Shown one piece after another: positions 131-63,793 of a DNA stretch of 64,000 bases. The stretch comes from Klebsiella phage KMI7. Each line of letters opens with the position of its first letter. The stretch's first letter is position 1. The stretch lies in sequence record MN101221.1, one strand, 5' to 3'. Position numbers and translations under genes: made by a program. The notes below the pieces were generated by a model, which worked only from the letters and a program-made list of their open reading frames with translations, was not told the DNA's origin and ran no database searches.

Positions 131-140
131 TCAAAAAGCC

Positions 141-190
141 CTTGACTTCGGTTGAGGGCTTTTGTTATATTGGGCCTATCGAAAAAGGAG
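141..190 (+). promoter_or_regulatory. Hairpin/early-promoter cassette copy 1: UUCG-loop stem 145-170 with TTGACT -35 in the stem, spacer 17, TATATT -10, leader ATCGAAAAAGGAG
   Basis: aaagcccTTGACTtcggttgagggcttttgtTATATT seen directly; six further copies elsewhere in window. Confidence 0.7.
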
Positions 191-197
191 ACATATT

Positions 198-440
198 ATG
201 AAACTGACTAAGAAAATGACCGATGTAGTGGCATGTGCGTTTGCATTAGGCTACAAAGTTGAAAATCATCCAACTCGCGTTGAAGTCATCAACCCTATCA
301 AGGGCCGTCCTGGTTTGGTTCTGTGTGAAGACGGTACAGCATATCGTAATGATGTCTCTTTAGAACTGGCAACTACTATCCGCACCGCAAAACAAATGAA
401 AGATGTTCTCATTAGCGGCGCAAAATTGAGGGCTTTATGA
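198..440 (+). CDS. hypothetical protein (80 aa)
   Basis: ATG at 198 preceded by AAAAAGGAGA RBS; track ORF 162..440 extended by upstream alternative start. Confidence 0.6.
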   Translation: MKLTKKMTDVVACAFALGYKVENHPTRVEVINPIKGRPGLVLCEDGTAYRNDVSLELATTIRTAKQMKDVLISGAKLRAL

Positions 441-17184: not shown

Positions 17185-17981
17185 TATAAAACCTTTACAC
17201 GTTGAACGATGGTTTGTTTAACGTCTTTGTATTCTCCGTGCTCTTTAACGGTTGCTTTGAAAGTGATTTCATCACCTTCGTTTGCAATGTTATTACCGAA
17301 GTAAACAACAACATTACCATCAACATTAATTTTGGTCATGAATCTTTCCACAGAAGTGTAGTAAGAAACTTGAGTATATCCCAGTGAAATCACTTTCTCA
17401 ACGGTTCCGGTCATTTCCAGACGTTGTTTGATTTCACCGATGTGGTTAGCTTTAGAAATGCGTTCCTGGCGCTCTTGTTCCCACTGTTCGCGGATTTCTT
17501 CGCGTTTGGCGATATAATCCTTCTCCAGTGCAACACCCATGCAGTAAGCGCACACGGCGTCAAATACAGGGCTGTTTTTGTTGTCTTCTTTAGACTGGTC
17601 AGCCCACCAAAGAACAGTAAACATTGGCATTTCTGCAATTACTTCGCCTTTACGCTTGCCAATCGGCATGATCCCTTTTTCCAGCAGTTCCAGTTTTTCA
17701 GTATCGAACACTGACAGTTTACCGCGACGTTCGAACAGATCGAAATCTGCAAAGCCCTGGAATACCATTTTGAAAGTATCAGTTTCAGTTAAACGGGCTG
17801 AAACACGGTCGAAATACTCACGCGCTTTCGCTTCCGCTTTCTCCGGATCGGTAGATAAGTTGCAGATATAGTTATCAGAAGTATAACCGCCACCTCTACG
17901 CTCAACACGCAAGGTATACATTGCATTTTTACGACCAGAAGAAATGAAGTAAGTGGTAGTAACTACGGTTGCGTTAGTCAT
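17184..17981 (-). CDS. hypothetical protein (265 aa)
   Basis: ATG at 17981 with AAGGAGA RBS and the cassette promoter/leader upstream; track ORF extended to 18050. Confidence 0.6.
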   Translation of the reverse strand: MTNATVVTTTYFISSGRKNAMYTLRVERRGGGYTSDNYICNLSTDPEKAEAKAREYFDRVSARLTETDTFKMVFQGFADFDLFERRGKLSVFDTEKLELLEKGIMPIGKRKGEVIAEMPMFTVLWWADQSKEDNKNSPVFDAVCAYCMGVALEKDYIAKREEIREQWEQERQERISKANHIGEIKQRLEMTGTVEKVISLGYTQVSYYTSVERFMTKINVDGNVVVYFGNNIANEGDEITFKATVKEHGEYKDVKQTIVQRVKVL

Positions 17982-18060
17982 GGTATTTCTCCTTAAAGGG
18001 TATCTCGTTTCGATATGGCTAATATAGCAAAAGCCCTTGACTTCGGTCAAGGGCTTTTTT
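17982..18060 (-). promoter_or_regulatory. Hairpin/early-promoter cassette copy 2 (terminator stem 18031-18056; -35 CTTGAC, -10 CTATAT, leader ATCGAAACGAG)
   Basis: aaagcccTTGACttcggtcaagggcttttgCTATATtagccatATCGAAACGAGatacccTTTAAGGAGaaatacc ATG on minus strand. Confidence 0.7.
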
Positions 18061-18074
18061 CATTTATTGCGAAA

Positions 18075-18494
18075 TTATAAGAAGAACCCAGTGCGAACAA
18101 TCAGATCGATTTTCTTTTCTGGTTCAAACGGTGATTTGCTATCGATGTTACACTGATAGAACATACCAACATACTTTTCAGGAATGTTGGATTCACGCGC
18201 CCATTTCAGGTTATCATCGGTATTCGGCCCCAGCATGAGGTTAACAACATCAACAGCATAATCCTGTTCTTTGGTGTTACCGGAACCGTTTACATAATGC
18301 CCGTGGGCGGTTTTGAGGATCTCAATTACTTCGCTATCGTCAGTTTCGACTTTGTAAAGCGTTGTATTTTCAGGAATTTCTTCAAGAATGATCAAAGCGG
18401 TTTTCATCACACTTACCTTTGTGTTTCTGTTTACGTTTTGCTTCTTTAAATGCTCGCTTGCGATCGCGGTGAGTAGAAGCGCGGTTGAAATCAT
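18075..18494 (-). CDS. hypothetical protein (139 aa; start uncertain, alternative Met 28 codons downstream)
   Basis: ORF. Confidence 0.45.
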   Translation of the reverse strand: MISTALLLTAIASEHLKKQNVNRNTKVSVMKTALIILEEIPENTTLYKVETDDSEVIEILKTAHGHYVNGSGNTKEQDYAVDVVNLMLGPNTDDNLKWARESNIPEKYVGMFYQCNIDSKSPFEPEKKIDLIVRTGFFL

Positions 18495-26968: not shown

Positions 26969-27173
26969 ATGCTCGTTTTATCTTTTCCAGAATGGAAATA
27001 AGTTCATCAACCTGCATTCTGGTCAGTGTTATTGTTTTTCCGTCCTGGATAATTTCTGTCATTTCTGATACGGATTCCGTATTAAATTTGACATCCAGTA
27101 AATCAGAATACGGTTCTGGTTGAAATCCTTCTGCAAAACCGTAATCATCGGGGATCCATTCATTAATTTTCAT
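26967..27173 (-). CDS. hypothetical protein (68 aa)
   Basis: ORF; ATG 27173 preferred over track GTG 27182. Confidence 0.45.
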   Translation of the reverse strand: MKINEWIPDDYGFAEGFQPEPYSDLLDVKFNTESVSEMTEIIQDGKTITLTRMQVDELISILEKIKRA

Positions 27174-27178
27174 GATAA

Positions 27179-27343
27179 TCACTTGTTATAAGGGAAACCA
27201 TCACGAACCATTTGCGGTTTGTCCACCGTTCGTTTTGCTTTGCCCCCGCAATAACACTCTTTCGGTTCGTCGCGGCTTGCGATGCTTGACATCTTCGGGA
27301 ATTCTTTTTCGCACTTGGTGCATTTATAGGTATAGGTAGGCAT
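27179..27343 (-). CDS. small zinc-ribbon protein (54 aa; CxxC...CxC, FmdB-like) not in ORF track
   Basis: MPTYTYKCTKCEKEFPKMSSIASRDEPKECYCGG...; TAATG coupling with upstream gene stop at 27343. Confidence 0.55.
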   Translation of the reverse strand: MPTYTYKCTKCEKEFPKMSSIASRDEPKECYCGGKAKRTVDKPQMVRDGFPYNK

Positions 27344-28697: not shown

Positions 28698-29257
28698 TCT
28701 TTTACTTCATCAACAATATCATAATGGTTGATGTATGGTAAAGCAATTTTTAAATTACTCGCGTCTTGAATGTTGCGTAAGAAACGAGTAGGAGAAAGAA
28801 GACACAACCGCTCGGATCCGTTGTTTCCTTTAGCGGCAAATGATAGGGTTTCTCCCCCGTCAATCTTCATATCAACAGAAATCGTTTTGAATTCTGGTGC
28901 ATATGACGTGATTTTGCCGTTGTCTCTCGGCGTACTATAGAAACATACACTTTGTGGGACATTATAACGATCTGTTTCAATGTACATGTAATCGCCGTCA
29001 GTCATTCCCCACACAGTGTAAAGGGATCCGGTATAGTCACCAAAGGAATTTTTAAAATCTTCCTTCGTGGTATATCCCAGCGAGCGCAATTGCATAAGCT
29101 GGTTATGCTGTTCGATTGCGTCGGCTTTTTGTTGTTCCTGTACTTGCGCATCAATCGTTTCTTGCCAGGAATTATACGCATAGTAACCCACAACAGCGAT
29201 TACAGCCATAACCCCTACAGCTTTCCAGATTTTAGCGTCTTCGTTTTTGTTACTCAT
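28661..29257 (-). CDS. hypothetical membrane-anchored protein (198 aa, N-terminal TM helix, periplasmic/exposed body)
   Basis: ORF; AVGVMAVIAVVGYYAY signal-anchor. Confidence 0.5.
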   Translation of the reverse strand: MSNKNEDAKIWKAVGVMAVIAVVGYYAYNSWQETIDAQVQEQQKADAIEQHNQLMQLRSLGYTTKEDFKNSFGDYTGSLYTVWGMTDGDYMYIETDRYNVPQSVCFYSTPRDNGKITSYAPEFKTISVDMKIDGGETLSFAAKGNNGSERLCLLSPTRFLRNIQDASNLKIALPYINHYDIVDEVKEWNVSQIGVKFK

Positions 29258-29270
29258 GCTATATTCCTTT

Positions 29271-29296
29271 TAAGAAAAAGGGCCGAAGCCCCTTTG
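29271..29296 (-). terminator. rho-independent terminator (GGGC-UUCG-GCCC + U5)
   Basis: Hairpin + T-run on minus strand after 29297..29626. Confidence 0.6.
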
Positions 29297-29626
29297 TTAA
29301 CGAAGATAAACCACATAACCGCTTTGGTCAATCGCGCGGTCTGCGTCATTGAAGATATTACCACGAATGCCTTTTGCTGGTGCTTTCCAGCTTGCAGGTT
29401 TCAGGATATTACCATCATTATCGATGAAAGCGGCAACAGAACGCTGATTGAACATTTCACCAGTTTCTTTGTTGCGAGTATCCTGAATAACGCGATGATA
29501 TTTGCGGCCTTTCTCCAGAAAGAAAACAGTTTCGAAAGGAGAATCTTGGAAACGAGCGTTACGCGCTTTGTACATTGCTTCCATGAAAGGGGCTGCTTTT
29601 TCTGCGAGGATTTCGAAAGTGTTCAT
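29297..29626 (-). CDS. hypothetical protein (109 aa)
   Basis: ORF preceded by promoter/leader element and AGGAG RBS. Confidence 0.55.
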   Translation of the reverse strand: MNTFEILAEKAAPFMEAMYKARNARFQDSPFETVFFLEKGRKYHRVIQDTRNKETGEMFNQRSVAAFIDNDGNILKPASWKAPAKGIRGNIFNDADRAIDQSGYVVYLR

Positions 29627-29693
29627 GGTATATCTCCTAAAGTGTGTTTCGTTTCGATGTAAGTACTATATCAAAGATGGTTATTCTATGCAA
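29627..29693 (-). promoter_or_regulatory. Early promoter + conserved leader (TTGCAT-17-TATAGT-6-ATCGAAACGAAAC...CTTTAGGAG)
   Basis: Read on minus strand: ttgcatagaataaccatctttgatatagtacttacATCGAAACGAAACacaCTTTAGGAGatatacc ATG. Confidence 0.65.
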
Positions 29694-29910
29694 GGCTTTT
29701 TTCGTTATCCATCAAATATTTTAAGTGTTCTTTTAATGCAGGGAGTTCGTTCAAATGGCGTTGCTTAACTTTCTCGTACTCTTTGCGTTCCCAGTTTTCA
29801 AGATTGCTTGCCAACGCTTCATCACAATAAGCGATCCCGCGTTCTGCATCCTGAACTTTCTGTTTCCATTGTGCAACTGCTTGTTGATAAAGAGAACCGT
29901 TAACCATCAT
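29686..29910 (-). CDS. hypothetical coiled-coil protein (74 aa)
   Basis: ORF with GGGAGG RBS and leader variant ATCGAAACAAGGGAGG. Confidence 0.5.
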   Translation of the reverse strand: MMVNGSLYQQAVAQWKQKVQDAERGIAYCDEALASNLENWERKEYEKVKQRHLNELPALKEHLKYLMDNEKSLA

Positions 29911-29975
29911 AATAATTTCCTCCCTTGTTTCGATGGGGTAACTATACCAAAGCTACCCCAGAATGTTTTAACAAA
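29911..29975 (-). promoter_or_regulatory. Promoter/leader variant (TATAGT-6-ATCGAAACAAGGGAGG)
   Basis: tatagttaccccATCGAAACaagggaggaaattatt ATG on minus strand. Confidence 0.45.
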
Positions 29976-29983
29976 AAGTGCTA

Positions 29984-30247
29984 TTAGTAGGTATCCAGTT
30001 TATACATTTTGCACCAGTTCATGAATTCTTCGAAAGTCTGAGTATTAACACGTTTTTCCTTCTTCACTTTCTTAGTGATTACAGGACGGTTAGTAAAACG
30101 TTTTTGCATTTTCACAGTGATTGCTACTTTATCGCCCAGGTCTTCAACCTTTTCAACCAGCGCCCACTGAGAACCAATTTCAGCGCCGAAAGTCAAACCA
30201 ACAATCTCACCTGCTTTAACGTGTGCTGCATATTTTACTTTAACCAT
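29984..30247 (-). CDS. hypothetical protein (87 aa)
   Basis: ATG 30247 after AGAGAAAGGAA RBS and conserved leader; track ORF extended upstream to 30313. Confidence 0.55.
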   Translation of the reverse strand: MVKVKYAAHVKAGEIVGLTFGAEIGSQWALVEKVEDLGDKVAITVKMQKRFTNRPVITKKVKKEKRVNTQTFEEFMNWCKMYKLDTY

Positions 30248-30322
30248 TTTCGTATTCCTTTCTCTGTTTCGTTTCGATGAATACAAGATACCAAAAAGCC
30301 TCCCGCAATGCAAGAGGCTTCT
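30248..30322 (-). promoter_or_regulatory. Hairpin/early-promoter cassette copy 7 with leader (stem 30296-30320 containing TTGCAT; -10 TATCTT; ATCGAAACGAAAC)
   Basis: aagcctcTTGCATtgcgggaggctttttggTATCTTgtattcATCGAAACGAAACagagaaaggaa on minus strand. Confidence 0.65.
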
Positions 30323-30336
30323 TTAACAAAAAAATG

Positions 30337-30639
30337 CTATTTTATTTCTTTGAGTAATTTACGGATCCCGCCGCCCTGTGTCTTATCAAAGATTTTCTTT
30401 GCATCAATAACAGAAGTGATTATGTGGTAGTTGTTACCTTTTCCGTCAAACTCAAACTCGACCTTGTAGTCACTACGAAATTTCACAAAAACAAATTCAC
30501 CTGCAAAGTGCTTACGAAACTGTTTTTCGTTAATGTCCAACCATTCCTGTGTATCATCTAACTGATACATGCGACAAAACAGGATCGAACCCATTACAGC
30601 AATCACGACAAGGATAGCTAACGCGAATTCTGACATCAT
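30337..30639 (-). CDS. hypothetical membrane protein (100 aa)
   Basis: ORF with N-terminal TM helix. Confidence 0.5.
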   Translation of the reverse strand: MMSEFALAILVVIAVMGSILFCRMYQLDDTQEWLDINEKQFRKHFAGEFVFVKFRSDYKVEFEFDGKGNNYHIITSVIDAKKIFDKTQGGGIRKLLKEIK

Positions 30640-36323: not shown

Positions 36324-36821
36324 TCAACTGGTTAATTTCTTTTTCTTTTTACCTGCACGGGTAACACCTAATACTTTCGGCCCGATGTTGGTTACTGCTC
36401 CAGTAGTCACACCAGAAGCAATCTTTTCCGGATCGCCGCCAGAATCGCCAGCGACCATATCCTCTAACATACGCCCCTTATCATAATATTCTTTGAGGCG
36501 TGGAACGTTCAGCATGATTTCTTCATGCTCTTGTTCCGTCAGATTGTAGCGATTGCGTAAGGTATCATATGAACTGGTTAAGTTCATAAATCCAGTCATA
36601 TACGGAACAGAATTCATTCGACGCTTGATATGGCGTACTGAACGATGAAAAGGAGAATACGCTTCTAACTCTTCTTTTGTTTTGGGGTTGCGAATTACTT
36701 CGCCTTGTCCATCAAGGATCCCCAGCTTGTAAGCAGTCCATTCAGTCCAGGGCTTTTTGAGTAGCCGGATCATCCGGACGCTATATGTTAAATCCATATT
36801 TTTAACTAATTGATCACTCAT
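36324..36821 (-). CDS. hypothetical protein (165 aa)
   Basis: ORF. Confidence 0.5.
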   Translation of the reverse strand: MSDQLVKNMDLTYSVRMIRLLKKPWTEWTAYKLGILDGQGEVIRNPKTKEELEAYSPFHRSVRHIKRRMNSVPYMTGFMNLTSSYDTLRNRYNLTEQEHEEIMLNVPRLKEYYDKGRMLEDMVAGDSGGDPEKIASGVTTGAVTNIGPKVLGVTRAGKKKKKLTS

Positions 36822-36826
36822 GATTA

Positions 36827-37603
36827 TTACTCTATTGTGAAAGTGAATAAATCAGATTTGGTTTCAGGTTCAAACTCCATACAAACAACCTCGCATAGTG
36901 GTTTAACCCCTTTCCAATCCTCCAGGTAATACCCAGTATCTATACCGCATCCAGGATTCATAACAAGGCCAGTTTCATCAAGAAACTTTTTGCATTTACT
37001 TGATGTGGTGCTGTCATCTTGTCGGAAACAATGTGTTTTCGAATACCGGAAATTTGCAGACATTTGAGGGATTATGAAAGTTCCCTGACGCGCGATCTGT
37101 GATGCACGTTCGATTACTTTATACTCAAATTCTGCCCCTGTATACTTACCCTTAAAATCAGAGGTTTTGATTTTACCAAAAGGCGGATTACTGATCGCCA
37201 TATCAAACACCTGATTAAATTCAGTTGTTAAGGCGTCTCCATGCACCCAGGAGGCTTCTGGTACGATACGCTTACCTAACTCATAGTATGTGTGATTTAA
37301 CTCAACACAGACGATTTCACGCGGCGTATTGTACATCATGTAATGAACCATAGCGAAAGATAATCCACCGATACCAGCACACAGGTCAATAACGCTTCCA
37401 CCTGTGCAAGCATCGATTGTGAAATCGCGAGCAAGTCCAATAGGGGTAAAGAACGCCCCTAATTCAGAGTTGTTTGTAAACGCGCCTTCATGAAAGTTTT
37501 CGATAATGAACAACTTCTCTTCGTAAGTTAGCGCTTTGTCAGAGTGAACCAGATCCATTATCTGATTGTGTTTCTTGGTTTCCGCTTTCGTTAACTTTGC
37601 CAT
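36827..37603 (-). CDS. gamma-class N6-adenine DNA methyltransferase (orphan)
   Basis: Motif X FFTPIGLA, motif I VIDLCAGIGG, motif IV ISNPPFG in gamma order; start at MAKL (37603) inferred because track N-terminal extension is out-of-frame overlap with 37539..37925. Confidence 0.75.
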   Translation of the reverse strand: MAKLTKAETKKHNQIMDLVHSDKALTYEEKLFIIENFHEGAFTNNSELGAFFTPIGLARDFTIDACTGGSVIDLCAGIGGLSFAMVHYMMYNTPREIVCVELNHTYYELGKRIVPEASWVHGDALTTEFNQVFDMAISNPPFGKIKTSDFKGKYTGAEFEYKVIERASQIARQGTFIIPQMSANFRYSKTHCFRQDDSTTSSKCKKFLDETGLVMNPGCGIDTGYYLEDWKGVKPLCEVVCMEFEPETKSDLFTFTIE

Positions 37604-37925: not shown

Positions 37926-38209
37926 TTCAAACCCTCTTTAACACCCTCTTTCATGGCTTTCCAGGTAGAACCCGCTTCACCATTCAGGGCGGCGAATACA
38001 AATAGTAAGATAGCAAGGACAAGATTCACGCCAGCAATCACCATGATTTTGCTATACACGAAAATGTAAGGCATTGCCACCACCCACCAACTAAAAGAAT
38101 TACCAGTTACGATGTTGAGTGCTGCAAGTAAGAAAGTGATAACGAATGCGATTTTCATAATGTCCTCCTTTGTTATGATTAAGGTATCATCTTTTGTGAA
38201 AGAATGCAA
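37922..38209 (-). CDS. hypothetical membrane protein (95 aa)
   Basis: ORF, three hydrophobic helices. Confidence 0.5.
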   Translation of the reverse strand: MHSFTKDDTLIITKEDIMKIAFVITFLLAALNIVTGNSFSWWVVAMPYIFVYSKIMVIAGVNLVLAILLFVFAALNGEAGSTWKAMKEGVKEGLK

Positions 38210-38220
38210 TACCTACAGAT

Positions 38221-38243
38221 ACAAAAAAGCCCCTTTCGGGGCT
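38221..38243 (-). terminator. rho-independent terminator (AGCCCC-GAAA-GGGGCT + U6)
   Basis: Hairpin and T-run on minus strand after 38250..38504. Confidence 0.65.
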
Positions 38244-38249
38244 TAATTT

Positions 38250-38504
38250 TTATGCGTTATTGATGAGATACCGAAGAACGTTTTTCGCTTGTTCCTCATT
38301 ACAACCAACTTTGAAACCAGGTTCGATAGGGAGGAAGTTCCAGAGGAAATCAACACTTCCTTCAACGTCATCTTTGCCTTTTTCCAGCATCGCTAACAGT
38401 AAACCTTTGTTTTTGATGCTGTTTACGATTGCGTCAAAATAACCATCGCTGAAATCAACATTCGGGTTCAGCATTTCGTTGTAAGGGTTGTTGAATACGT
38501 TCAT
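38250..38504 (-). CDS. hypothetical protein (84 aa)
   Basis: ORF. Confidence 0.5.
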   Translation of the reverse strand: MNVFNNPYNEMLNPNVDFSDGYFDAIVNSIKNKGLLLAMLEKGKDDVEGSVDFLWNFLPIEPGFKVGCNEEQAKNVLRYLINNA

Positions 38505-38858: not shown

Positions 38859-39095
38859 TTACCTTACATTTTTTGCAATAAACAGTGTTAAACGCGGGAA
38901 TACGTTTGATAGAATGATCATTCTCAGTACAAAACCACCTACTAACACCAACAGCGGAGAACAAACCAACCACCAGGAAGCAGTAGCCATAACGCCGATT
39001 GCTGCTAATTTTAGGTATACCATCACACCAAACAAAATAATTAATATAAGTTTCATTTTAGATTCCATTGTAGGGGCTTTTTCGCCCCCAGTCAA
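38859..39095 (-). CDS. hypothetical membrane protein (78 aa)
   Basis: ORF with two TM helices. Confidence 0.5.
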   Translation of the reverse strand: MTGGEKAPTMESKMKLILIILFGVMVYLKLAAIGVMATASWWLVCSPLLVLVGGFVLRMIILSNVFPRLTLFIAKNVR

Positions 39096-45490: not shown

Positions 45491-45558
45491 AATATATCCC
45501 TCTCAATGGTGTACACCCAATATAACAAAGCCCCTGCACGAATGCAAGGGCTTTTTGA
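45491..45558 (-). promoter_or_regulatory. Hairpin/early-promoter cassette copy 5 (UUCG-loop stem with TTGCAT -35, TATATT -10)
   Basis: aaagcccTTGCATtcgtgcaggggctttgtTATATTgggtgtacaccattGAGAGGgatatatt ATG on minus strand. Confidence 0.65.
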
Positions 45559-45921
45559 TTAGTGACCGATCCGGTACTTGTACTTGAGGATCCAATCTGC
45601 TTTTTGCGAGTGAGTCAGTACGCGGAAGTTGTTTTCTTCTGCAAACTTCAACCCAGGGGTTACGATCTTAACCATGCCCCACTCTTCGAGAAGTCGCGCA
45701 ATGTTGTTCCGGCGTAGTTCGTCTTCTTCCGTCATATCGACTTGACGACCATCGAGTTTCAACAGTTCTTTAAAATGCACGATAAAATACTTACCTTGCT
45801 TTTTCAGAATGTGACACGATTGCCAGAGCATTTTCTTTTTGTTGTTTGCAATACCAATACGGGTTAGCGTTTCACGGATCTTTAAAAAAGAATCGTCGCT
45901 GATTAGTTGAATTTCTAACAT
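45559..45921 (-). CDS. regA: Translational repressor RegA
   Basis: MLEIQLISDDSFLKIRETLTRIGIANNKKKMLWQSCHILKKQGKYFIVHFKELLKLDGRQV.. nearly colinear with T4 RegA. Confidence 0.95.
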   Translation of the reverse strand: MLEIQLISDDSFLKIRETLTRIGIANNKKKMLWQSCHILKKQGKYFIVHFKELLKLDGRQVDMTEEDELRRNNIARLLEEWGMVKIVTPGLKFAEENNFRVLTHSQKADWILKYKYRIGH

Positions 45922-57090: not shown

Positions 57091-57327
57091 ATGATCACCG
57101 AATCCAAAATGACTTATCAGGAAGCACTGAAAGTTTTGGGCGCAACTGGTAGCGAAACCAGCGCCGAAATGTCCAGACTCTTCAAACGTGCATCCTTACG
57201 CAATCACCCCGACCGTGGTGGTAGCAATGAATTAATGCAGAAAATTAACCAGGCTTACGACGTCGTTACAAAAACTGGGCCTAGTGGCGCACGTTCTGAG
57301 ACTGCTGGTGACGTTCGCGCACGTTAG
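57091..57327 (+). CDS. J-domain (DnaJ-like) protein, 78 aa
   Basis: YQEALKVLG...LFKRASLRNHPDRGGSNELMQKINQAYDVV with invariant HPD tripeptide; GAGGA RBS. Confidence 0.8.
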   Translation: MITESKMTYQEALKVLGATGSETSAEMSRLFKRASLRNHPDRGGSNELMQKINQAYDVVTKTGPSGARSETAGDVRAR

Positions 57328-57775
57328 CGGAAACGATATCTTTGTTGAAGTTGGTACACTGAAAGTTCGTTTCTATCGTCACGTGTTCATGCGCAAAGGT
57401 GCTTATGTGTTTAGCGCGGTGTATGATCCTGCTGTATCTAAGTATCGTCCGGCTGCACAACTTCGCGGAACCATGTTCGAAGACGAAGACGGCGCTTGCC
57501 TGGATATGATCGTTGATACGTTCAAAGAGTTGCAGAAACTGAAACCGAGTGTTCAAGGCGTTGTGAACGCGATCGATAAGATGAACGCAGAGTTTGCAGC
57601 GGGACATCGTTCAGCATCTTTTGTTAAACGTGTAGCTGCTCAGGAAGCCGCGCCGAAGCCAGAAGAGAAGCCAAAACGCACTGTTAATCGTATCGGTAAA
57701 GAGGCACTGGAAGAACGATATTCCAACATCACGGGGATCTTTTCCCCGTCCTTGACGTTGTTAATGATATCCTGA
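57284..57775 (+). CDS. hypothetical protein in +1 frame overlapping J-domain gene (start uncertain; possibly expressed by frameshift or from internal ATG 57389)
   Basis: Protein-like ORF (…FEDEDGACLDMIVDTFKELQKLKPSVQGVVNAIDKMNAEF…) with no RBS at its GTG/ATG candidates. Confidence 0.45.
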   Translation: MAHVLRLLVTFAHVSGNDIFVEVGTLKVRFYRHVFMRKGAYVFSAVYDPAVSKYRPAAQLRGTMFEDEDGACLDMIVDTFKELQKLKPSVQGVVNAIDKMNAEFAAGHRSASFVKRVAAQEAAPKPEEKPKRTVNRIGKEALEERYSNITGIFSPSLTLLMIS

Positions 57776-59783: not shown

Positions 59784-59794
59784 TTATAGAAACC

Positions 59795-59998
59795 TCAATT
59801 CAAAAATAATTTCACAGAGTTACCACATTTGGGACATGTGATAAATTTTTTCACGACATAATCAGCAGCAGAGAAAAATCCATTGTAAATCGATTCTCTC
59901 TTTTGCTGTATATCAGATAGTTCATATTCTAACCCACTTTTACAGCAACTGCAAACAGTAATTAGTTTTGGGCTATGGATAACAGTAATCATATACAC
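59795..59998 (-). CDS. small zinc-ribbon protein (67 aa; CSCC...CPKCG)
   Basis: ORF with two Cys pairs. Confidence 0.45.
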   Translation of the reverse strand: MYMITVIHSPKLITVCSCCKSGLEYELSDIQQKRESIYNGFFSAADYVVKKFITCPKCGNSVKLFLN

Positions 59999-63463: not shown

Positions 63464-63529
63464 TTTTCTCTCCTAAAGTGCGTTTCGTTTCGACAGGGCT
63501 ATAGTCTCATAACCCCGTATCTACGTCAA
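63464..63529 (-). promoter_or_regulatory. Early promoter + conserved leader (TTGACG-17/18-ACTATA-..TCGAAACGAAACgCACTTTAGGAG)
   Basis: ttgacgtagatacggggttatgagactatagccctgTCGAAACGAAACgcaCTTTAGGAGagaaaa ATG on minus strand. Confidence 0.6.
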
Positions 63530-63532
63530 CAC

Positions 63533-63793
63533 TTATTTGAAGCGAATTGTGCTATTTTTGAAAAATAATCCAGAGCACACAGCACCTTCAATTTTCACCC
63601 CTGTAGGACTTTTAGCAACGAACCCTGTTGCATAGGTGTCTTTCTCATCACATGCAAACCAGGCGTGGCCTGTGTACGTGATATCGGTAAACCCGTTAGC
63701 AGTCAGAATACGTTCGGCTTCTTTCTCATCGGTGCATCCGGCTTGTGCTAAAACGACAATGACGACTAACACCAAAGCAATAATATATTTCAT
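63533..63793 (-). CDS. Putative lipoprotein (86 aa; lipobox LAQAGC)
   Basis: Signal peptide MKYIIALVLVVIVVLAQAG|C. Confidence 0.6.
   Translation of the reverse strand: MKYIIALVLVVIVVLAQAGCTDEKEAERILTANGFTDITYTGHAWFACDEKDTYATGFVAKSPTGVKIEGAVCSGLFFKNSTIRFK

Follow-up and report, generated by a model that had tools for sequence, protein, structure and literature searches.

Small promoter cassettes called PeSLs have been described in the phages RB49 and phi1. At the upstream end lies a stop codon, embedded in AT-rich sequence; a sigma-70-like promoter follows, with a stem-loop at one of five places with respect to its boxes, and then a Shine-Dalgarno (SD) sequence and an ATG (PMC2839356). PeSLs were proposed to act as crossover sites and to mediate the shuffling of orphan genes (Arbiol et al. 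2010, PMC2839356; Comeau et al. 2014, PMC4122927). We here deal with a stretch of 64,000 nt from Klebsiella phage KMI7 (sequence record MN101221.1), a T4-like phage of the genus Slopekvirus, Straboviridae. The whole stretch is called the window. The element in question is a short leader on its minus strand, around positions 29,627 to 29,693, which begins with the 13-mer ATCGAAACGAAAC. The motif behind it, (A/G)TCGAAAC(GAAAC), is found in six copies in the window; they are called copies A to F (Table 1).

The transcribed region from +1 to +20 sets the strength of a promoter. The initially transcribed sequence can alter promoter output more than 10-fold, and productive transcripts are more abundant from purine-rich starts; the escape of the polymerase is favoured by GA or GG near +5/+6 and slowed by pyrimidine-G steps there (PMC5961368). 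For the promoter T5 N25, the initially transcribed sequence was the subject of Kammerer 1986 and Hsu 2006, here taken as cited in PMC5961368. Judged from its sequence, the KMI7 motif is probably a selected initially transcribed sequence of this kind and, at the same time, a structure-free 5' end of sigma-70-type early mRNAs, spread by recombination of the cassettes.

The 12-mer TCGAAACGAAAC has three exact matches in the window, all of them on the minus strand (29646-29657, 30266-30277 and 63482-63493). Read along that strand, each is preceded by a -10 hexamer (TATAGT, TATCTT and GACTAT, respectively), a variable stretch of 6 nt and a purine. The exact copies begin 7 nt past the hexamer and sit 31-32 nt 5' of the ATGs at 29626, 30247 and 63463. 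Three variants keep the identical 7-nt offset: ATCGAAACAAGGGAGG at 29927-29934, ATCGAAACGAGATACCCTTTAAGGAG at 18004-18014 and, on the plus strand, ATCGAAAAAGGAG at 178-185. In all copies the purine is the 7th nucleotide after the hexamer and is preceded by a pyrimidine. Between the motif and the SD sequence there are 0 to 12 nt. Since the register with the -10 is fixed and the distance to the SD sequence is variable, the motif appears to be locked to the transcription start and not to the ribosome site.

An earlier note on this DNA had claimed that three minus-strand genes share a 5' block, that three further variants exist, that the motif begins at the predicted +1 and that the mRNAs would have a common 5' untranslated region of about 30 nt. 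All this was borne out: the three exact copies of TCGAAACGAAAC precede the three ATGs, the variants are present at the 7-nt offset, a pyrimidine-purine pair lies at the 7th nucleotide past the -10 in every copy, and the predicted untranslated regions measure 20-33 nt. Two of its -10 hexamers, TATAGT and TATCTT, were retained; for the third, ACTATA, we prefer GACTAT, which fits better with its 17-nt spacer to TTGACG. An SD block CACTTTAGGAG(A), supposed to follow the motif in all three genes, was found only behind the copies at 29657 and 63493, the copy at 30277 continuing with AGAGAAAGGAA. Nor does this block come 3-10 nt after the motif, as had been stated; it starts 1 nt past it. In the genome of the related phage PMBT1, CTTTAGGAG is confined to the leaders of these two copies and a single site in coding sequence.

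An extended -10 of the form TGnTAnnnT is present in five of the six window copies; copy C has GACTAT without the TG. A -35-like hexamer, TTGACN or TTGCAT, with a spacer of 17-18 nt is seen in four. Because TTGCAT matches just 3 of the 6 positions of TTGACA, the promoters appear to lean on the extended -10.

Counted loosely, as a 12-mer with up to 2 mismatches, the motif is not in excess in the window (10 matches vs 10.1 expected). Counted together with its promoter, as TANNNT-N6-RTNGAAA, it has 9 matches vs 2.43 ± 1.5 in shuffled sequences, and 0 of 100 shuffles reached 9. PMBT1, a complete sister genome joined from four pieces, was used for copy counts only, as it is not collinear with the window past about 57.3 kb. 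It contains at least 14 promoter-proximal copies of R-T-(C/T/A)-GAAAC, mostly with a second GAAAC, and all of them lie 7 nt past a -10. In an alignment of 13 copies from both genomes, positions +2 and +4 to +7 are invariant (2.0 bits) and equal the -10 positions, although these 13 were selected by the motif, which makes the values at the motif positions partly circular. The T-run and the G of the TGn-extended -10 are likewise conserved; the six bases of the discriminator are nearly free (0-1.1 bits).

In a promoter set compiled blindly with respect to the motif (TGnTAnnnT plus a downstream SD sequence and an open reading frame, ORF), the motif is present at 11 of the 60 sites; roughly half of the set looks spurious, being situated within coding sequence. 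Hairpin-type intergenic promoters, read by eye, carry it in about 14 of roughly 20 cases. Other early promoters of the window have different leaders, e.g., CACCAATTGAGAGGAATATATTATG.

Beyond these two genomes, the 14-mer CATCGAAACGAAAC was searched in viral contigs. Among the matches listed, TAnnnT lies at the expected offset in 107 of 146 occurrences and in no more than 13 at any other offset, in a pool that includes loci first retrieved by a -10 requirement. Since this pool is partly preselected, a scan for CATCGAAACGAAAC without any -10 condition gives the better figure: about 100 of the 120 stretches listed are promoter-associated, and about 20 are evident chance matches in coding DNA. A sample of bacterial genomes has the -10 at the expected offset in 2 of 118 occurrences, both of which are prophage pL promoters; one further prophage pL promoter in that sample uses TTTAAT. 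The remaining bacterial matches are nearly all due to chance and are spread over all phyla. Together, these figures imply that the association with a -10 is specific to phage promoters.

The gene behind copy A, the MNTFE/MYTFD gene, allows a look at the same locus in more distant relatives. Its orthologues in Pseudotevenvirus and allied phages have about 75% nucleotide identity. The earlier note had made its proposal depend on conservation in related phages, and such conservation is found: ATCGAAACGAA is invariant upstream of this gene in six phages (the window, RB16, Miller, EC-F2, PF-CE2 and Margaery) despite flanks of about 75% identity. The discriminators differ at that locus (acttac, acacac, tatccc), and the -35 and spacer regions of the six cannot be aligned. 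EC-F2 and PF-CE2 even have another kind of promoter there, TAGCAC...TTGCTAAA (TAGCACTTTTTGCTAAA-type) instead of the AAAAAGC-TTGCAn type. The sole deviant is JC221, the most distant genome, with AGACGAAGAAAC. For several Pseudotevenvirus genomes, the BLAST alignment with the window sets in at the -10 of copy A. The start has been kept through divergence and a promoter swap: either purifying selection is at work, or the start is shared sequence where such swaps occur, or both.

The same start sequence turns up in other phages. RB49, phi1 and GEC-3S all belong to Krischvirus, and with a 77-nt query around copy A the stretch of -10 plus motif was found at 5-7 places in each Krischvirus genome matched. 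An annotated promoter of GEC-3S reads CATAAT acacac ATCGAAACGAGATACACTTTCTAGGAG; the PeSL type phage phi1 has CATAAT acaccc ATCGAAACACGACACTTTCTAGGAG between ORF081 and ORF080, and the sequence of its PeSL081/080 is CATAATacacccATCGAAACACGACACTTTCTAGGAG. The promoter-leader cassette of Krischvirus has 10 matches in the phi1 genome and 2 in KP15 and KP27. Rogue1, a T1-like phage of the Drexlerviridae, shows AGCACGATTTGCTAAA...TTTGcTATAGT tactcc ATCGAAACGAAAC...AAGGAA...ATG.

A scan of IMG/VR anchored on the -10 (TANNNT-N6-RTCGAAACGAAAC) gave at least 120 matches, 119 of them usable. Among these listed matches, 81 of 119 are lambdoid; they continue with ATCGAC/TG... and are joined to 17 unrelated upstream operator sets. 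They were identified as lambdoid by way of phi80, whose record annotates the CI operators, the -35 and the -10 of pL. This promoter reads TTGACC-N17-TTTAAT tactcc ATCGAAACGAAAC, with boxA of nutL 55 nt and gene N about 400 nt downstream. The other 38 comprise T4-like and T1-like contigs, unknown contigs of 36-90 kb with consensus promoters, and GC-rich phages. In the latter, the ATG follows within 5 nt of the motif, and there is no SD sequence. Three of the GC-rich contigs (L011, L040 and L076) have in common CCCTG-TAGACT-N6-ATCGAAACGAAAC-GA(C/A)CCATGACC with a leader of 18-19 nt, and L076 has two such copies 475 nt apart. The recurrence in T4-like, T1-like and lambda-like phages speaks against the motif being the private regulator site of one phage. 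Neither the 13-mer nor its presence in T4-like, T1-like and lambdoid phages alike was found described in the literature; figures are not text-searchable, so a prior description is possible. A literature search with the motif and the upstream block as sequence strings retrieved unrelated primers only, and one for work on Slopekvirus promoters yielded nothing of use.

Contigs of 45-53 kb, siphovirus-like in appearance, have promoters of the same build. There, a start RTNGAAA is seen in 18 of 157 pattern matches, many of the 157 being chance matches in unrelated contigs. A second conserved block, the imperfect palindrome TAGCA-N5-TGCTA(AA), was noticed on the minus strand of the window at 29967-29983, 30322-30339 and 63536-63554. 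Its end is 22-23 nt away from the -10 on the upstream side, which is too far for a normal -35, and the interval mostly contains a small hairpin. The block is repeated on siphovirus-like contigs (L007, L008, L093, L098, L106, L284) and occurs five times in 8 kb of L008. For this class of promoters no description was found in the literature. To consider TTGCTAAA as a MotA box was rejected, the distance to the -10 being 22-23 nt vs 11-13 nt in the consensus (PMC1524935). An UP element was rejected as well, as the AGCAC...TAAA block is about 10 nt too close to the -10.

The surroundings of the motif are a composite of about 90 nt: a stop codon with an AT-rich block, a terminator-like hairpin, the promoter, the short leader, an SD sequence and an ATG. 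The upstream stop codon and the downstream SD sequence with the start codon are the boundaries, and the 5' part is AT-rich. Several copies open with TAATAGCAC-TTTTTG-TTAAA, in which the upstream stop codon is contained. In copies B, E and F, a G+C-rich hairpin contains a -35-like element (TTGCAT or TTGACN) and is followed by a T-run, the final TG of which belongs to the extended -10. In copy D the hairpin encloses the -10. A role of these hairpins as terminators is predicted; at the orthologue of copy E, the annotation of KP27 has an overlapping "terminator" and "promoter". Copies A and C have no stem-loop, and copy A looks like a degenerate cassette. The cassettes occur in multiple copies beside small hypothetical genes. 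PMBT1 has an orphan gene (ORFan) of 228 nt that the window lacks, and this deletion reaches exactly to the hairpin of copy E. As far as the arrangement goes, the cassettes are of the PeSL type.

How could such a start be useful? In the reading we favour, the motif would form the 5'-terminal 8-13 nt of mRNAs made from TGn-extended -10 promoters at the core of PeSL-type cassettes, with host RNA polymerase starting at its A or G. Nine of its 13 bases are purines, with GAAA at +4 to +7. An A/C-rich, U-poor and purine-rich start (A+1, U+2, GAAA from +4 to +7) would favour productive initiation and promoter escape; the lack of a pyrimidine-G step at +5 to +7 should equally be favourable to escape. 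In the mRNA, the motif would leave the downstream SD sequence unpaired and in this way permit translation at once after infection. Its copies may have been spread and homogenised by recombination between cassettes, within one genome and between co-infecting enterobacterial phages. A dedicated trans-acting factor would not be required. The argument from composition is supported by the promoters of the same build on the 45-53 kb contigs, because they carry other A/C-rich starts. The annotated starts of two T7 promoters, A1 (cc followed by ATCGAGAGGG) and A3 (ac followed by ATGAAACGACAG), together cover ATCGA and GAAACGA.

Several points weigh against this reading. The motif has CG steps at +3/+4 and +8/+9, which belong to the class that slows escape near +5 to +7 (PMC5961368). 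The +1 is predicted for all these promoters, from geometry and the analogy to T7 only. Copies A and C have a common leader and different promoters, which is not what a simple duplication of whole cassettes predicts. Composition alone does not explain an exact 13-mer, given that varied A/C-rich leaders apparently do the same job. Conservation of the exact sequence beyond lack of structure and richness in purines hints at sequence-specific recognition or at common descent. Finally, benefits for transcription and for translation are not separable by sequence data. A more specific version, in which ATCGAAAC(GAAAC) is an "early start box" recognised as such by host RNA polymerase or, at the nascent 5' end, by a factor of the host, is conceivable; we consider it doubtful.

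Of course, the motif could also be a mere linker: a functionless 13-mer that hitch-hikes as an island of homology on crossovers between cassettes, be it by PeSL shuffling or by exchange of lambdoid modules. The proposal that PeSLs are crossover sites (PMC2839356) suits this idea, as do the homology to Pseudotevenvirus that starts at -10 plus motif, the promoter type swapped upstream of the same gene, the ORFan-sized insertions and deletions (indels) that abut cassettes, and the cassette parts which Klebsiella myoviruses have in common with siphovirus-like contigs of 45-53 kb. Yet 13 bases are very short for homologous recombination, the discriminator is free to vary right beside the fixed +2 to +8, and hitch-hiking does not readily account for a motif joined to at least 17 operator sets, to several lambdoid downstream leaders and to GC-rich phages; as the sole explanation, a linker is unlikely. 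If the selected property resided in the RNA, pppAUCGAAAC... might be recognised by a host factor or an RNase pathway (5' pyrophosphohydrolase plus RNase E, ribosomal protein S1 or Hfq) that sets mRNA lifetime or ribosome loading, an idea close to the standby site of the earlier note. The motif is indeed always at the extreme 5' end and unstructured, it is found in phages that have only the host in common, and its exact sequence is conserved more than composition needs. No known recognition sequence of the RNase E pathway, S1 or Hfq matched, however, the distance between motif and SD sequence is not conserved, and phi80 pL has no ribosome site for about 400 nt, which renders such a signal quite unlikely. 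Very improbable, in our view, is an operator in the DNA, i.e., binding of a phage or host protein to +2 to +13 that blocks or boosts early promoters, for instance for early shut-off. Repressors do act at sites overlapping the start, the tandem CGAAA-CGAAA repeat could suit a dimer, and the shut-off of T4 early promoters was described as incompletely understood (PMC3014915), but the motif is not palindromic, only a subset of the early promoters of this genome has it, lambdoid, T1-like and T4-like phages share no obvious regulator, and in the lambdoids it lies outside the annotated CI operators. A sigma-dependent pause element was also considered, as AACGAA resembles the AACGAT of lambda PR'; it was rejected, since the T matching position -7 is missing.

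The earlier note had thought of a translational repressor or an endoribonuclease, i.e., of the leader as a RegA operator or a RegB cleavage signal. To this we give hardly any credence. RegA is indeed encoded in the window, at 45559-45921 on the minus strand (Pfam PF01818, E 5.4e-54), immediately behind the small clamp-loader gene, the place that it has in T4-like phages throughout. Known RegA operators, however, are A+U-rich and overlap or abut the AUG; the motif contains C and G and lies 17-38 nt upstream of the AUG, and it does not look like a RegA operator of the known type. The A+U-rich ends of several leaders at the AUG (GAGAAAAAUGG, AAAUUAUUAUGAUG) could be RegA sites. As to RegB, a tblastn search with the T4 protein yielded nothing in the PMBT1 genome or the window (best E 2.3 and 0.92), a very divergent RegB being possible, and Pfam assigned no RegB domain to six proteins around vs. 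Two leaders have GGAG as the SD sequence. The strong-site consensus of RegB, GG*AGRAYARAA, consists of GGAG and the bases 3' of it (PMC3014915); copy C with GGAGAGAAAAA matches that 3' part in 5 of 7 positions, copy A with GGAGATATACC in 2 of 7 only, and the 5' motif lies outside the consensus. The determinants of both proteins are placed at or 3' of the SD sequence and the AUG, not at the 5' end. Moreover, the motif occurs in lambdoid and T1-like phages, where to our knowledge neither regA nor regB is to be expected. A ribosome-linked operator in general fares no better: the register is kept with the -10 and not with the SD sequence, and the motif of phi80 pL is about 400 nt away from the first gene. 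An unstructured, standby-like leader, also mentioned in the earlier note, is compatible with the data. The six leaders fold no better than shuffled sequences (minimum free energies of 0 to -5.5 kcal/mol, z +0.4 to +1.9), and Rfam, at the gathering threshold, has no family in the window or in five lambdoid loci; a structured cis-regulatory RNA was ruled out on these grounds.

Part of the leader resembles another ribosome site. The sequence ACTTTAGGAGATATACCATG at 29624-29643 (minus strand) is close to the T7 gene 10 site of pET vectors, AACTTTAAGAAGGAGATATACATATG. It is nevertheless natural here, 93 phage records being at least 99% identical over the surrounding region. Copy A and the T7 gene 10 leader share ACTTTA, GGAGATATAC and the ATG. 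The likeness is confined, in copies A and C, to the part next to the SD sequence (ACTTTA-GGAGATATACC-ATG), and the epsilon UUAA part is absent. This epsilon of T7 gene 10 is said, after work of Olins and Rangwala in 1989, to be an enhancer.

Table 1. The six motif copies of the window and the parts of their cassettes (positions in the window)
Feature	Position	Strand	Details
Copy A, ATCGAAACGAAAC	29646..29658	-	predicted +1 = A at 29658
Copy A, extended -10, TGaTATAGT	29665..29673	-	hexamer 29665-29670; 6-nt discriminator acttac 29659-29664
Copy A, upstream, AAAAAGCC-TTGCAT	29688..29701	-	weak -35 (3/6 vs TTGACA), 17-nt spacer
Copy A, remaining leader, ACACTTTA-GGAG(29634-29637)-ATATACC-ATG	29624..29645	-	leader total 32 nt
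109-aa ORF behind copy A	29297..29626	-	hypothetical protein in the annotation of relatives
Copy B, ATCGAAACGAAAC	30266..30278	-	followed by AGAGAAAGGAATACGAAA-ATG(30247)
Cassette B, upstream part	30285..30339	-	TAGCATTTTTTTGTTAAA 30322-30339; terminator-like hairpin AAGAAGCCTCTTGCATTGCGGGAGGCTTTTT 30293-30323, TTGCAT in loop; TGgTATCTT (-10 30285-30290)
Copy C, GTCGAAACGAAAC	63482..63494	-	followed by GCACTTTAGGAGAGAAAA-ATG(63463)
Copy C, promoter	63501..63554	-	TAGCACAATTCGCTTCAAA 63536-63554; TTGACG 63524-63529; 17-nt spacer; GACTAT 63501-63506
Copy D, short form ATCGAAAC	29908..29934	-	directly into AAGGGAGG-N8-ATG(29910)
Cassette D, upstream part	29934..29983	-	TAGCACTTTTTGTTAAA 29967-29983; hairpin TGGGGTA...TACCCCA 29934-29960 around TGgTATAGT (-10 29941-29946)
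Copy E (cassette copy 2 of the earlier note)	17979..18060	-	hairpin AAAAAAGCCCTTGACCGAAGTCAAGGGCTTTTGC 18027-18060; TATATT 18021-18026; ATCGAAACGAG 18004-18014; ATACCCTTTAAGGAGAAATACC-ATG(17981)
Copy F (cassette copy 1 of the earlier note)	133..200	+	hairpin AAAAAGCCCTTGACTTCGGTTGAGGGCTTTTGT 133-165; TATATT 166-171; ATCGAAAA 178-185 fused to AGGAG; ATG at 198

Positions 29200-30500 are 99.8% identical to many Slopekvirus Klebsiella phages (Miro, PMBT1, KP15/KP27-like). In Miro, the counterpart is a region of small hypothetical genes with topoisomerase gp39 on one side and the Dda helicase on the other. The surroundings of copy A belong to the early, variable part of the genome that is transcribed on the minus strand. 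Cassettes E and F are near-identical, face outward about 18 kb apart and flank a block of tail-fibre and holin genes. Indels of about 170-230 nt relative to PMBT1, which is the size of orphan genes, are located at 18073-18077, 26969-27181, 36327-36335, 38874-39073 and 59792-59797, and each of them equals or adjoins one small hypothetical gene; the one at 18073-18077 is the deletion that reaches to the hairpin of copy E.

The collinearity with PMBT1 ends at 57326-57699 of the window, where PMBT1 position 37443 is joined to a 384-nt piece (37932-38315), behind which the sequence resumes at position 83146. About 45 kb of PMBT1, including nrd, td and baseplate-hub genes, are absent at this junction. 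It falls in coding sequence with no cassette nearby, and no record of the phage collection spans it in one piece. A deletion, another order of the genome or a join made in assembly may account for it. A second family of near-identical leaders, (T/C)A(C)CAATTGAGAGGAATA(T/C)ATTATG, was seen behind -10 hexamers that start at 45524, 58489 and 62817 on the minus strand.

Effects of start sequences have so far been studied mostly in synthetic libraries and with one or two model promoters. A natural, repeated and exact transcript start, common to early promoters of very different coliform phages, offers a test case of how much promoter strength in vivo owes to the first 10-15 bases transcribed. If there were an early start box, it would be a promoter element downstream of +1 with a consensus of its own, ranking with the extended -10 or the discriminator, and three unrelated lineages of phages of Enterobacteriaceae (Straboviridae, Drexlerviridae, lambdoids), together with some GC-rich phages, would have kept or exchanged it so that expression in the first minutes is as high as possible. 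With these findings, the concept of PeSLs as mobile regulatory cassettes also takes in Slopekvirus and Pseudotevenvirus; they further point to an exchange of promoter parts between myoviruses and siphoviruses on the same hosts. In practice, the motif may serve as a marker of early promoters and transcript starts when therapeutic Klebsiella phages are annotated, and the promoter-leader unit, given its predicted strength, as a compact expression signal for phage engineering.

How does all this compare with what is known? Like T7 A1 and A3, the promoters discussed here are early promoters for the host polymerase with an A-U start after a pyrimidine. T7 A1, A3 and T5 N25, however, are single promoters; here, one exact 13-mer is met at many promoters in three phage lineages. 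The phi80-type pL shows exactly this 13-mer, equally spaced from its annotated -10, but it is present in a single copy, is controlled by CI operators and makes a long untranslated leader with nutL. Closer in build are the promoters of the 45-53 kb siphovirus-like contigs and of Rogue1, the layout of which is matched by cassette D: the block TAGCACnnnTTGCTAAA, a hairpin, TATAGT, tacccc and ATCGAAACGAAAC are shared by these promoters with copy D, EC-F2 and PF-CE2, and the siphovirus-like promoters are also present in multiple copies within a genome. Most of them differ in using other A/C-rich starts, e.g., ACACCAAACAACGGAG or AACGAAACGAAAGGAG.

The closest relatives are the PeSLs. The layout is the same, the copies are multiple and lie beside small orphan genes in variable regions, and indels between close relatives end there; PeSL081/080 of phi1 even carries ATCGAAAC...ACTTTCTAGGAG. 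Differences remain. Copies A and C have no PeSL stem-loop, and the PeSL papers align promoter, stem-loop and SD sequence, a conserved transcript start not being singled out in the accessible part of their text. PeSLs were published for Krischvirus, T4/PST and KVP40/nt-1, whereas the copies described here reside in Slopekvirus. The type of cassette is an already described one, the PeSL, and Slopekvirus adds members to it.

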